From IMG/VR virus record IMGVR_UViG_2713896791_000019: a DNA stretch of 4,894 nucleotides; one strand, given 5' to 3'. Position numbers and translations under genes: made by a program. Source of the stretch: a virus. Its lineage: Duplodnaviria > Heunggongvirae > Uroviricota > Caudoviricetes. Of the stretch, positions 1,137 through 4,779 are shown one piece after another; position 1 is the first letter of the stretch, and every line of letters begins with the position of its first letter. The notes under the pieces are model-generated. The model saw only the letters and a list, made by a program, of their open reading frames with translations, searched no databases and had not been told where the DNA came from.

Positions 1137-1787
1137 TTACCAGTCAATCCAGAGTGGACCGTGTTCAGCGTAAATATAACTGTACACATCCAGATTATAT
1201 TTGTGGTCTGTTAAGAACAGGCCGCAAATACATGCCGAAGCTTCCAGTGCAGCGGCTCTGTTACTGAATAACCATGTAGCAACATTCCAGCGTTTTTCTG
1301 CATCCCAGTCTTTATCAAGGCCTGATACCATGAAGAAACCGTTAGTGTTGCCATCAAATAATTCTGTTTCCAAATTTTTAAGCAATGCCTGATGGACTCT
1401 TGCCAGGTATTCCACCGGAATTTCGCCACGAATTCTGATGAGATTGTCATAAACAAACATGTTCCCCGCATATGGCGATTTTTCTTTCTTGTTTTTTAAA
1501 CCAGCATCATGAGCAAACTGATCAATTTCTTCTTCCGTTGGTTTCGTATTGATGTTTTGCGCTGTCGTTTCTGCAATTTTATTTGCCACACTCTCTGAGT
1601 CGTGTTTATTTATAGACGCACAGAAATACAATCCGGTAAACGCATCGCGCACATTACGAGCCATATTATCAGTGTCTTTTTTCGTTACCGATTCCAATTC
1701 AAGTTCGTTCAGACGATGACGAAGTGTGTGTGCTGCAATCTCCTGGATTGAAGGAGGTAAATCTTTAAATTCCATCGTCAACCTCAT
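1137..1787 (-). CDS. hypothetical protein, 216 aa, no recognisable domain; candidate prophage accessory gene
   Basis: Long clean ORF with protein-like composition. ATG at 1787..1785 overlaps the upstream ORF stop (TGATG). Alternative start at 1775 has GAGG 6 nt upstream. No P-loop, HEPN or TM motifs seen by eye. Confidence 0.65.
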   Translation of the reverse strand: MRLTMEFKDLPPSIQEIAAHTLRHRLNELELESVTKKDTDNMARNVRDAFTGLYFCASINKHDSESVANKIAETTAQNINTKPTEEEIDQFAHDAGLKNKKEKSPYAGNMFVYDNLIRIRGEIPVEYLARVHQALLKNLETELFDGNTNGFFMVSGLDKDWDAEKRWNVATWLFSNRAAALEASACICGLFLTDHKYNLDVYSYIYAEHGPLWIDW

Positions 1788-1939
1788 CAGTCGGAGTTTC
1801 TTGCTAACCAGCGATGCGCGCCAGCTTCGGTTTTAAACGTTTTACTTTTGGTATACGTCATCGCGGTAAACGTACCGTCCTGGTTGGGAAACACGCCACA
1901 TACCAGAGATTCGCTGTTGCCAAGATCGATAGTATCCAT
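1787..1939 (-). CDS. small hypothetical protein, at least 50 aa; frame stays open across the N gap to an ATG at 2032
   Basis: ATG at 1939..1937 preceded by GAGG (1948..1945, 5-nt spacer). Stop TGA 1789..1787 overlaps the start of the 216-aa gene. A longer version from 2032 would require the 50-N gap to preserve frame. Confidence 0.4.
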   Translation of the reverse strand: MDTIDLGNSESLVCGVFPNQDGTFTAMTYTKSKTFKTEAGAHRWLARNSD

Positions 1940-1951
1940 GCTGACCTCATT

Positions 1952-2001
1952 NNNNNNNNNNNNNNNNNNNNNNNNNNNNNNNNNNNNNNNNNNNNNNNNN
2001 N
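1952..2001. other. run of 50 unresolved bases (N); gap or masked segment
   Basis: Literal n characters at 1952-2001. Confidence 0.97.
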
Positions 2002-2130
2002 CATAGTTATTAAAGTTGAACCCTGCCGTCATGTTCTTACGCCTCGGGCTGGCTACTTAACCCCTGACCACTGCCTGGTAACTCGAAGTATTGCCCTGCA
2101 TTCTGTGGGGTGGGGAGAGGGAATGAATGA

Positions 2131-2159
2131 AGTTTAGAAAAATGAACTTTTCAGGTCAA
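2131..2159 (-). promoter_or_regulatory. candidate leftward sigma70 promoter (PL-like)
   Basis: On minus strand: -35 TTGACC (2159..2154), 17-bp spacer, -10 TAAACT (2136..2131). Lies directly next to the operator-like palindrome. Confidence 0.3.
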
Positions 2160-2177
2160 TGTTTTTTTATCAAAACA
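2160..2177. promoter_or_regulatory. operator-like palindrome TGTTTT-N6-AAAACA, distal copy (candidate OL)
   Basis: TGTTTTtttatcAAAACA has perfect 6-bp inverted arms, identical to the arms of the palindrome at 2882-2899. Confidence 0.5.
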
Positions 2178-2243
2178 TTTTAAGCAGGCAGCTGTTAAGC
2201 CATCACCACGATGGCATACAGTTAATCAAATAGATGAGGTCGG

Positions 2244-2882
2244 TTAAATATCTTGTTGAATTTTAAAGCATACGCCCAATATGCAAGATAGATCATCCAG
2301 CATAATTGAAGGGTAGCGAGGATTCGTGGGGACTAAAAGAATATCCGGCCCTTCTATCTCCAGTTTACGAATGACAGGTGTTGTGGTCCCTTTGGGTAAG
2401 GCAAGGACAATATTTCCTGGTTGTACGGTTCGATTGGGATCAACAAAAACTGTTGAACCATTTGGGATGGAAACTCCCCCACCAGATGTTGACATACTGT
2501 CACTCTCTAGAACAACTGCAAAGGTATTGGCCGGGATTTCTCCGACAAGCTGCACACAAGAGGTTATTGAGGAATTTTTCATATAATCACTCCAGCTTGC
2601 TGCCTGCTGAAGTGATAGTAGCGGAACCGTTTTTATCGGCGGTAAAGATAGATCAAGCGAATCACCTGTATTTAACTCTCCTCCATTAAGAAGCCAATTT
2701 TCGTTTACTTTCAATATTTTTGCCAGTGAACTTATGTAACGCGAGGACGGCGCTCCTCCACCGTTTATCCATTGACTTACGGAGCCTTTTGATGCGCCAG
2801 TGGCATTGACAAGGTCTTTGCCTTTCAGGTTTAGCGCATGCATACGTTGGGTTATGCGTTCAGATATTGTTTGCTTGCTCAT
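2244..2882 (-). CDS. cI: CI-like prophage repressor (N-terminal XRE-type HTH, C-terminal S24 LexA-like autopeptidase)
   Basis: 212 aa. LAKILKV is identical to lambda CI. C-terminal motifs align with lambda CI: SDSM (Ser129) to GNSM, VFVDPNRTVQPGNIV to LILVDPEQAVEPGDFC, VIRKL (Lys173) to FKKL, and NPRYPSIM to NPQYPMIP. Divergent from a Cro-like gene. Confidence 0.93.
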   Translation of the reverse strand: MSKQTISERITQRMHALNLKGKDLVNATGASKGSVSQWINGGGAPSSRYISSLAKILKVNENWLLNGGELNTGDSLDLSLPPIKTVPLLSLQQAASWSDYMKNSSITSCVQLVGEIPANTFAVVLESDSMSTSGGGVSIPNGSTVFVDPNRTVQPGNIVLALPKGTTTPVIRKLEIEGPDILLVPTNPRYPSIMLDDLSCILGVCFKIQQDI

Positions 2883-2899
2883 GTTTTGATTTTAAAACA
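2882..2899. promoter_or_regulatory. operator-like palindrome TGTTTT-N6-AAAACA overlapping the cI start and a PRM-like -10
   Basis: TGTTTTgattttAAAACA. A -10-like TAAAAT (minus strand 2894..2889) ends 6 nt before the cI ATG, and no Shine-Dalgarno precedes cI. Confidence 0.55.
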
Positions 2900-2973
2900 C
2901 AGATGGTTTTGTTTCTTGACTTTCTTTGGTTTTGATTATTAAACTTTTGGCGTTCAGTTTTATGGAGCGACTC
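2900..2973 (+). promoter_or_regulatory. candidate rightward promoter (PR-like) with a degenerate second operator
   Basis: -35 TTGACT at 2916-2921. Weak -10 candidates lie at 2937-2944 (TATTAA with 15-bp spacer). Degenerate palindrome GGTTTTgattatTAAACT at 2928-2945 matches 9 of 12 arm positions. GGAG at 2964-2967 serves the ATG at 2974. Confidence 0.4.
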
Positions 2974-3216
2974 ATGAAAAAATCAGAAGTATTAGGCTAT
3001 TTTGGCGGAGTTGTTAAAACAGCCGCAGCTCTAGGAACGTCAAAAACCACAGTCAGCATGTGGGGGGAAGAGGTTCCGTGGAAATGGGCGTTGCTAATTC
3101 AGGCAGTCACTGCCGGGGCGCTCAAATATGAGTTACACATACCGACGGTTGTCATTCCCGGTTCTGATCATAATCCGCCTTCTAACCAAGGGGGGATTCA
3201 TGAAAATCAAGCATGA
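2974..3216 (+). CDS. ydaS: Cro-like HTH regulator of the YdaS family, 80 aa
   Basis: GGAG 6 nt upstream of ATG 2974; the ORF opens at a TTG at 2926 but that start lacks an RBS. Product MKKSEVLGYFGGVVKTAAALGTSKTTVSMWGEEVPWKWALLIQAVTAG fits the recalled YdaS/Cro-like HTH pattern. Divergent from the repressor and followed by a ydaT-like gene. Confidence 0.75.
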   Translation: MKKSEVLGYFGGVVKTAAALGTSKTTVSMWGEEVPWKWALLIQAVTAGALKYELHIPTVVIPGSDHNPPSNQGGIHENQA

Positions 3217-3625
3217 ACACATCCGCATGGCGATGAATGCCTGGGCGCGTCCTGATGGCGAAAAAGTTCCGGCAGCTGGAATAACCCAGGCTTATTTTGA
3301 GTTGGGTATGACGTTTCCTGAACTGTATGACGACAGCCATCCGGAAGCCCTGGCTCGCAATACCCAGAAAATTTTCCGCTGGGTAGAGAAAGACACCCCT
3401 GATGCAGTTGAAAAAATTCAGGCGTTGTTACCAGCGATCGAAAAGGCAATGCCACCTTTGCTGGTGGCCAGAATGCGCAGCCACAGTTCAGCTTATTTTC
3501 GGGAGCTGGTGGAGACGCGGGAGCGACTGGTGAGAGACGCTGATGATTTTGTCGCAGTGGCAATCGCCGGTTTCAATCAGATGAACCGTGGTGGCCCGGC
3601 AGGAAATGCTGTGGCAGTACATTGA
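3200..3625 (+). CDS. ydaT: YdaT-like regulatory protein (recalled 'toxin YdaT' family), 141 aa
   Basis: GGGGGG at 3190-3195, then ATG at 3200. N-terminus MKIKHEHI matches what I recall of YdaT-family proteins. Overlaps the Cro-like gene by 17 nt. The longer ORF from 3128 has no RBS. Confidence 0.7.
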   Translation: MKIKHEHIRMAMNAWARPDGEKVPAAGITQAYFELGMTFPELYDDSHPEALARNTQKIFRWVEKDTPDAVEKIQALLPAIEKAMPPLLVARMRSHSSAYFRELVETRERLVRDADDFVAVAIAGFNQMNRGGPAGNAVAVH

Positions 3626-3696: not shown

Positions 3697-4779
3697 ATGG
3701 CTAACGCCTGGCTCAGATTATGGCATGACATGCCAAATGACCCTAAGTGGCGAACAATTGCCAGGGTGTCAGGGCAGCCAATTGCAACAGTGATGGCAGT
3801 GTATATCCACCTCCTGGTGAGCGCGTCACGAAATGTCACGCGAGGTCACATTGATGTCACGACAGAAGATTTGGCAAGTGCGCTCGACGTGACAGAAGAG
3901 GTAATTGATTCAATTTTGCAGACGATGCAGGGGCGGGTACTTGATGGTGATTTAATCACTGGATGGGAAAAACGCCAGGTGCTTAAAGAGGACAACGGCA
4001 ATATTTCGCAAACCGCAAAATCTCCTGCAGAGCGCAAGAGGGCGCAGCGAGAGAGGGAAAGAAAGCGGGAACAAAATGGCGATTGTCACGGCGCGTCACG
4101 AAATGTCACGCACATGTCACGACGAGTCACGACAGATAAAGATACAGATAAAGATACAGATAAAGATACAGATCAAGAAGATCAAAACACTATGGTCCAT
4201 GGCGTAAAAAACGCCACGAACCAGGCAGGGGATGTTCAGACCGTCAATCCTGGTCAGCCAGCAGGCACGACACCGGAAGCCGATTCAGCGTATGCGCTGA
4301 AAGCCGATTCGGGCGCTGTGCAGCAGGTGATGACCGCAGGGTCGGAGCAATCACACCAACTGCAGCAGCCTGAAGCCGATTCCGCCATTCAGCGGGAAGC
4401 CGATCGGGTAGTCCCGGAAAGCACCGGGCAGTCTGTGGGACGAGTGGATTATCCGGATGTGTTCGAACAGGTCTGGCGGGAATACCCGTTGCGTGCTGGG
4501 GCAAACCCGAAGAAATCCGCTTTCAGTGCCTGGAAGGCCAGATTGCGCGAGGGGGTGCCACCAGAGACCATGCTGGATGGTGTGAGGCGTTACGCGAGAT
4601 ACCTGGCGGCGACCGGGAAAGCGGGAACGGAATTTGTTCAGCGAGCGACGACGTTTTTTGGGCCGGACCGGAATTTTGAAAACCCCTGGTTGCTCCCGGT
4701 AAGCGGCACGAACAACCAGCGTTGTGTGAATCATATTTCTGAACCGGATACCGAAATTCCGCCGGGATTCAGGGGGTGA
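3697..4779 (+). CDS. phage replication initiator / replisome organizer (functional analogue of lambda O), 360 aa
   Basis: AAGAGG at 3686-3691, then ATG at 3697 (the ORF opens at GTG 3691). N-terminus ANAWLRLWHDMPNDPKWRTIA fits the recalled replisome-organizer N-terminal pattern (W-x-R/K-L, DPK). It sits between the regulators and a helicase-loader gene and contains iteron-like repeats. Confidence 0.85.
   Translation: MANAWLRLWHDMPNDPKWRTIARVSGQPIATVMAVYIHLLVSASRNVTRGHIDVTTEDLASALDVTEEVIDSILQTMQGRVLDGDLITGWEKRQVLKEDNGNISQTAKSPAERKRAQRERERKREQNGDCHGASRNVTHMSRRVTTDKDTDKDTDKDTDQEDQNTMVHGVKNATNQAGDVQTVNPGQPAGTTPEADSAYALKADSGAVQQVMTAGSEQSHQLQQPEADSAIQREADRVVPESTGQSVGRVDYPDVFEQVWREYPLRAGANPKKSAFSAWKARLREGVPPETMLDGVRRYARYLAATGKAGTEFVQRATTFFGPDRNFENPWLLPVSGTNNQRCVNHISEPDTEIPPGFRG
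3825..3861. repeat. iteron-like array 1: four GTCACG/GTCACA repeats at 10-11 bp spacing
   Basis: GTCACG at 3825, 3835 and 3856, GTCACA at 3845. An inverted copy CGTGAC lies at 3888-3893. GACAGAAGA is repeated at 3861-3869 and 3891-3899. Confidence 0.6.
4085..4131. repeat. iteron-like array 2: five GTCACG repeats at 10-11 bp spacing
   Basis: GTCACG at 4085, 4095, 4105, 4116 and 4126. The 21-bp block GCGCGTCACGAAATGTCACGC at 4091-4111 is identical to 3821-3841. Confidence 0.7.
4132..4173. repeat. 12-bp tandem repeat ACAGATAAAGAT, 3.5 copies, A-rich
   Basis: Exact copies at 4132-4143, 4144-4155 and 4156-4167, with a partial copy to 4173. In frame they encode TDKDTDKDTDKD. Confidence 0.85.

Follow-up and report, generated by a model that had tools for sequence, protein, structure and literature searches.

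In phage lambda, the CI repressor binds the left and right operators OL and OR, which lie about 2.4 kb apart and interact through a DNA loop. The OR3 position is the one preferred by Cro and is the weakest site for CI, and CI cleaves itself at the bond between Ala111 and Gly112. Two further systems close to the locus described here are known from prophages. In Qin, DicA represses the promoter dicBp 22-fold, and DicF is processed from a polycistronic RNA (PMC10448788). In CP-933P, the distal promoter PL933P carries the operators OL1-3 and is repressed about 100-fold by PaaR2 and YdaS (PMC8630535).

The stretch of DNA analysed here (the window, 4,894 nucleotides) comes from a lambdoid E. coli prophage and was 100% identical to prophages of many E. 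coli strains, including O103:H2 12009 and O45:H2. An annotated copy that adjoins tRNA-Ser/mtfA (L001) was 100% identical to the window and provided a 20.6-kb homologous prophage stretch for comparison. Read from right to left, L001 contains replication genes, YdaT and a Cro-like gene on the plus strand, the repressor on the minus strand, and then a leftward operon, also on the minus strand, made up of a DUF1391/ydfA-like gene, a gene for a 212-aa protein, DicF, dicB, a DUF1482 gene, an exonuclease gene, a DUF4224 gene and an integrase gene. The same comparison revealed that both N-runs of the window mask real sequence. The run at 523-572 masks the DicF sRNA gene and adjoining sequence (L001 8438-8489, RF00039 in Rfam, 75 bits), and the run at 1952-2001 masks 38 nt of the leftward leader. 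Sequence comparison suggests that positions 2160-2177 very probably serve as the main left operator (OL) of the immunity region, where a lambda-CI-like repressor would hold the early-left operon off. The features on which this reading depends are the following.

1137..1775, minus strand: second gene of the leftward operon, 212-aa phage protein (phrog_2151)
1787..1939, minus strand: first gene of the leftward operon, DUF1391/YdfA-like, 50 aa (PF07151, E 8e-28; annotated in L001)
1940..2118, minus strand: leader of the leftward transcript, about 180 nt (L001 9838-10016), partly N-masked at 1952-2001
2131..2148: OL1-like weaker candidate operator AGTTTAGAAAAATGAACT, core GTTT-N8-GAAC with 1 core mismatch, over the leftward -10; putative assignment
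2131..2159, minus strand: PL-like predicted sigma-70 promoter from a consensus scan, TTGACC (2159..2154)/17 nt/TAAACT (2136..2131), predicted start near 2124, leftward
2160..2177: OL2-like candidate operator, perfect palindrome TGTTTTTTTATCAAAACA, directly upstream of the leftward -35 at about -36 to -53; non-chance and conserved
2244..2882, minus strand: immunity repressor, HTH_3 plus Peptidase_S24 (PF01381 and PF00717), 212 aa; best solved relative lambda CI
2882..2899: OR3-like candidate operator, perfect palindrome TGTTTTGATTTTAAAACA that begins on the A of the repressor ATG and lies over minus-strand TAAAAT (2894..2889)
2905..2922: OR2-like candidate site GGTTTTGTTTCTTGACTT, of which the left half alone matches; over the PR -35; invariant across relatives
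2916..2945, plus strand: PR-like predicted promoter from a consensus scan, TTGACT (2916-2921)/18 nt/TAAACT (2940-2945), predicted start near 2952, predicted to drive the Cro-like gene
2928..2945: OR1-like candidate operator GGTTTTGATTATTAAACT, full core GTTT-N8-AAAC, over the PR -10
2974..3216, plus strand: Cro-like gene, 80 aa, P22_Cro family (PF14549, E 1e-15)
3200-3625, plus strand: YdaT (Pfam)

The locus resembles lambda in its CI-related repressor, in the candidate operators to the left and right of the repressor gene and in the predicted leftward early promoter flanked by such sites. As in lambda, three OR sites about 23 bp apart lie over PR and the cI promoter, and the cI mRNA is probably leaderless here as well. 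Unlike lambda, the locus has 18-bp operators with the core GTTT-N8-AAAC, no N gene after PL, two recognisable OL copies of which the best lies upstream of the -35 and not over the promoter core, and Ala-Ala at the repressor position where lambda has its Ala-Gly cleavage site. OL and OR are separated by 722 bp here instead of about 2.4 kb because rex genes are absent. Gene order matches that of Qin dicBp (DicA/DicC, ydfABC-dicF-dicB): the repressor is followed by a leftward promoter, then by a leader homologous to that of Qin, a ydfA-type gene, and DicF with dicB. The Qin promoter is repressed by the adjacent immunity repressor, as is predicted here, and its operators are described as resembling those of the dicA/dicC gap (PMC10448788). 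DicA, in contrast, is short, lacks an S24 domain and is controlled by the antirepressor Rem, and the P22-like Qin operators bear no sequence relation to those of the window (PMC10448788). CP-933P likewise repeats 18-bp palindromic operators, in its repressor/cro gap and again near a distal PL (PMC8630535, PMC9986795). Its PL and PR are also near-identical in -35 and -10, its repressor gene is leaderless (probably so here), its Cro is of the P22-Cro/YdaS type with YdaT in the cII position, and its PL is under both regulators, as predicted here. The differences are that CP-933P uses the repressor PaaR2 and the operator half-site GTTTAGTAA and has a toxin-antitoxin pair between repressor and PL, and that its operators are known from experiments (PMC8630535, PMC9986795), those of the window being predicted from sequence.

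The original prediction had described an exact TGTTTT-N6-AAAACA palindrome at 2160-2177 and 2882-2899 and no other full copy, and a pattern scan of both strands bore this out. The two copies are separated by 722 bp from start to start. No third copy was present on either strand of the window when up to two mismatches were allowed, and the 20.6-kb homologous stretch of L001 contained only these two. In dinucleotide-preserving shuffles of the window (n=20,000), two exact copies occurred in 0 and one copy in 35, while shuffles of the 211-bp segment 2033-2243 by itself produced one copy in 18 of 200,000 cases. A chance origin of the palindrome pair is excluded. Beside the perfect copies lie weaker ones that the original prediction did not include, at 2131-2148, 2905-2922 and 2928-2945. 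When the core GTTT-N8-AAAC was searched with at most one mismatch, four matches were found in the window, all of them in the two regulatory gaps, so that copies of the candidate operator stand both between the repressor and cro genes and beyond the repressor gene, as in a lambdoid OL/PL arrangement.

In the cI/cro gap, three direct repeats TGKTTTTG at 2882, 2905 and 2928, 23 bp apart, define three 18-bp sites. A promoter scan of positions 1700-3100 returned three sites, including the leftward TTGACC-17-TAAACT and the rightward TTGACT-18-TAAACT. The perfect OR copy overlies the presumed cI promoter, whose minus-strand TAAAAT (2894..2889) lies 6 nt before the repressor ATG, with no Shine-Dalgarno sequence. 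By analogy with lambda, and with paaR2, whose mRNA has been mapped as leaderless (PMC8630535), this placement would make the cI transcript leaderless, with a predicted start at A2882. In one metagenome relative (L092), the left arm of OR1 is the perfect TGTTTT.

On the left side, the distal copy had been reported to abut a minus-strand TTGACC-17-TAAACT promoter pointing toward the genes beyond cI. Both statements held: the -35 hexamer occupies 2154-2159, the palindrome begins at 2160, and the genes downstream are co-oriented, which places a candidate operator at a predicted sigma-70 promoter directed from the repressor into the early-left genes. The perfect copy stands upstream of the -35 and not over the promoter core, and the copy 29 bp away, over the -10, deviates from the core at one position, while its left arm varies among close relatives. 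The position of this OL1-like site holds a full core in the metagenome relative L093 (AGTTTAGAAAAACAAACA). In the more distant relative L088, which has two full cores on the left side, the -10 TAAACT is likewise supplied by an operator. No third left-side copy was found in the window. The spacer of the leftward promoter (2137-2153) was highly variable among modules otherwise at least 98% identical, while the hexamers and palindrome arms were fixed. The palindrome GAAAA-N6-TTTTC within this spacer (2137-2152) was considered as an extra site and rejected, since its bases vary freely among near-identical modules.

We examined the leader downstream of PL across immunity types. It is 84-99% identical across E. 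coli prophages that between them carry four or more different repressors and a variety of first genes, and its mosaic breaks are sharp, one at about +6 of the transcript (window ~2119) and the other at the ribosome site of the first gene. A query made up of the 292 bp that separate the ydfA-like gene from the repressor found matches in 4,359 of 5,426 complete E. coli genomes. At least 80% of this PL segment was covered in 1,038 of the 5,426, and most matching genomes aligned at query positions 1-164 alone, that is, over the leader up to window ~2115. We aligned five prophages representing four immunity types, namely this type twice (once as the phage 813R8, with a different first gene), L005, L006 and Rac (L007). 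The leader was near-identical up to ~2118 and the sequence beyond was type-specific, with a -10-like hexamer at one aligned position, just before the shared leader, in 5/5 prophages. In each of the three other immunity types, the type-specific spot shared words with the prophage's own repressor/cro gap: the 14-mer TTAAATTTGTAATT in L005, AATGTACT in L006, and ATTGTCAATAGGCT and TGCCTAATGT in Rac. Type-specific words at one spot next to a shared leader suggest that an immunity-specific left operator and promoter would sit there in the whole prophage group. The word that the window carries at this spot is the palindrome. In the phages 813R8, 640R1 and 204576 (loci L002-L004), the same module and repressor are joined to another first gene, and both palindrome copies are retained. 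The left segment is, in other words, an immunity-specific mosaic module that is inherited and exchanged with the repressor.

A search of related prophages found the palindrome at both positions, in 83 near-identical modules as well as in relatives with 84-85% identity. The close relatives were 83 loci (80 from IMG/VR and 3 phage records) fetched by a repressor at least 98% identical. Their OR copy was exact in 83/83, and their PL copy matched the pattern exactly in 80/83 (one with a spacer change), the other 3 being draft contigs with a 1-nt shorter A-run in the spacer. Across 56 distinct haplotypes the palindrome arms were unchanged and 2879-2944 was invariant, while the PL spacer 2137-2153 showed many changes. 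The phage collection contained three phages with this repressor, and the next relatives there had at most 31% identity; with three carriers alone in that collection, covariation was drawn from metagenome proteins. A contig scan of the genome collection with the repressor returned no relative; the peptide patterns used reach close relatives alone, and the E. coli representative lacks the module. Among the metagenome relatives with repressors 84-85% identical (L092, L093-95), both sites were kept and the flanking bases had diverged. L093 differs at the innermost arm base in one half-site of each copy (TGTTTC..., ...TAAACA), which narrows the core to GTTT-N8-AAAC. The repressor of L088 shares the N-terminal domain alone with that of the window (52% identity), including an identical helix-turn-helix stretch ATGASKGSVSQWING. 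Its 3.1-kb locus contains the core four times, twice in the cI/cro gap and twice around a TTGACT-18-TAAACT promoter located 1.5 kb beyond cI, past two inserted opposite-strand genes, and an additional one-mismatch site abuts the cI ATG. The spacing of the two palindromes is 722 bp in the window, 721 in L004, 716 in L092 and 714 in L093, so that helical phase is not kept, a measure that is uninformative at such loop lengths.

The mosaic boundary, the conservation and the distant relative, together with the studied analogues, support the earlier view of an OL/PL-like element. In the working model, the repressor (2244-2882) would recognise the core GTTT-N8-AAAC and bind 2160-2177, as the Cro-like protein probably would too. 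The perfect copy and the weaker copy at 2131-2148 would bracket the TTGACC-17-TAAACT promoter on the minus strand, and repressor dimers there would shield about -7 to -24 and -36 to -53 from RNA polymerase, which would keep the early-left operon off in the lysogen. In the cI/cro gap, the repressor would occupy the three sites spaced 23 bp apart, with OR1 and OR2 over PR and with the perfect OR3, over the -10 of the probably leaderless cI promoter, filled at higher occupancy. The Cro-like protein is expected to be the second user of the same operators, presumably with another order of preference. Looping between OL and OR is possible. Protein binding, repression, start sites and any such loop are what we infer from these comparisons. 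The four operator strings of this module had no match in the literature searched, and the locus represents a previously uncharacterised immunity specificity built on a design that is thoroughly known, not a new principle.

An alternative assignment, to which we give perhaps one chance in a few, is that the perfect palindromes are mainly high-affinity Cro sites, through which Cro would silence the cI promoter and weaken PL at the start of lytic growth. To control PL and PR, the repressor would then rely mostly on the imperfect copies that overlie the -10s. The perfect OR copy does overlap the putative -10 of cI and adjoins the cI start codon, which is the Cro-preferred OR3 position in lambda, and the Cro of L088 is also related to that of the window (39% identity). 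Binding of YdaS in CP-933P starts on the PRM side (PMC8630535). However, the window and L088, which keeps the core, share one and the same repressor recognition helix, while their Cro recognition helices differ (SKTTVSMW versus TKASITQW), and lambdoid CI and Cro normally act on the same sites. Since repressor and Cro were always inherited together, comparison cannot tell which of the two proteins prefers the perfect copies. A preference of this kind would refine the assignment of 2160-2177 as the main left operator and would not replace it.

The perfect copies stand at unusual places, at the cI start and -10 and upstream of the PL -35, with no visible terminator between cI and PL, and for this reason a regulatory logic different from that of lambda was considered. 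A repressor loop of 722 bp or a roadblock would then cap cI and stop read-through into dicF/dicB, PL would be held mainly by the weak copy over its -10, and the Ala-Ala switch would not be flipped by RecA-stimulated self-cleavage. We regard this combination as improbable. A little less probable again is the narrower proposal that the distal palindrome acts on cI read-through, either as a terminator hairpin or as a repressor roadblock that shields the toxic dicF/dicB operon. A terminator scan found no terminator-like site between 2125 and 2246 and none from the cI stop (2244) to the palindrome, and a repressor at 2160-2177 would stand in the path of read-through polymerase. The palindrome RNA, on the other hand, forms an A-U hairpin without a U tract, and with no site returned by the scan we rejected it as an intrinsic terminator, which would require a G+C-rich stem and a U tract. 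In L088, moreover, the core flanks a promoter that lies past two oppositely oriented genes, where read-through from cI is not an issue. A roadblock would add to the operator function of 2160-2177 and not replace it, and such an additional role is possible. That the second copy is a chance palindrome of an A/T-rich region, or a site for the CII-like YdaT or a nucleoid protein, can practically be dismissed: the sequence read by YdaT of CP-933P is likewise an inverted repeat of 18 bp with a spacer of 6 bp, but two copies arose in none of the 20,000 shuffles, the arms are invariant amid varying neighbouring bases, and the YdaT box TTGATT-N6-AATCAA, located at the ydaS/ydaT junction, is unlike the TGTTTT/AAAACA arms (PMC9986795). 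The reading as a YdaT operator was rejected on sequence and on position, both palindromes lying outside the cro/ydaT junction. A look-alike of the YdaT box, GGGATT-CATGAA-AATCAA, is present at 3193-3210, where it overlaps the ydaT start codon; the matching junction in CP-933P holds TTGATT-N6-AATCAA.

The repressor aligned over its full length with lambda repressor 3bdn (E 7e-10). It has the N-terminal HTH and the C-terminal S24 domain of the lambda CI/LexA type with the Ser/Lys dyad, ESDSM aligning to EGNSM and IRKL to FKKL. At the self-cleavage site, where an Ala-Gly or Cys-Gly bond is typical, QQAASW of the repressor aligns with VQAGMF of lambda, so that the bond is Ala-Ala. It falls at residues 93-94 (window ~2600-2610, minus strand) and is kept in the relatives P0003-P0007 (84-89% identical), with the Ser/Lys dyad intact. 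A repressor with Ala-Ala at this bond may be cleaved poorly or may be induced by another route. RefSeq/PGAP annotates the C-terminal 112 aa of the repressor alone (L001 10133-10471), as 'LexA family protein', and leaves the HTH half and the operator-abutting ATG of the 212-aa protein without annotation. Just past the repressor stop codon, at 2199-2215, a hairpin GCCATC-N5-GATGGC is present that has no U tract and is not a canonical terminator. In relatives with 84-85% identity its stem was conserved and its loop was different.

The unit thought to be under repressor control had been described as two genes. Control by the repressor remains the predicted arrangement, but the gene number did not hold: the two genes are the start of the whole early-left operon, which extends to DicF, dicB, DUF1482, exonuclease, xis and int. 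A transcript from PL would run from the leader through the ydfA-like gene, the 212-aa gene, DicF, dicB, DUF1482 and the exonuclease to xis and int. For the homologous operon of Qin, transcription from the leader through to DicF and dicB is documented (PMC10448788). The ydfA-type gene, the DicF RNA and dicB are co-oriented and lie downstream of a repressor-adjacent promoter, and the presence of DicF, dicB and the DUF1482 gene identifies the operon as dicBF-type. Pfam and PADLOC assigned no function to the 212-aa protein of the second gene (1137..1775). The module is common in E. coli, including O103:H2, O121, O45 and O157:H7 strains, and lies directly upstream of a DicF/dicB copy, and knowing its operator and promoter helps to establish at what times these genes for cell division and phage exclusion are switched on. 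The core GTTT-N8-AAAC allows the repressor regulon to be predicted by motif search, and for phage biology the locus further confirms the modular OL - repressor - OR design.

Several further observations concern the surrounding sequence. The 5' end of the leader is C-rich (CCCUCUCCCCACCCCACAG). The leader RNA matched no Rfam family, its fold was no more stable than those of shuffled sequences (z +0.78), and 0 of 34 predicted pairs covaried; the leader might act as a Rho-loading or attenuator site, or as a put-like element. Between the 212-aa gene and DicF, a small gene (phrog_4274, 915-1136) lies on the opposite (plus) strand and would be crossed in antisense by the leftward transcript. To the right of the immunity region, the heptamer TGTCACG occurs six times in the O-like replication gene (7 in the whole window versus 0.58 expected by chance) and is followed by a 12-bp tandem repeat, ACAGATAAAGAT, in 3.9 copies; the segments concerned are 3834-3894 and 4084-4178. 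The pattern resembles a lambda-like origin, in which the iterons lie within the initiator gene.
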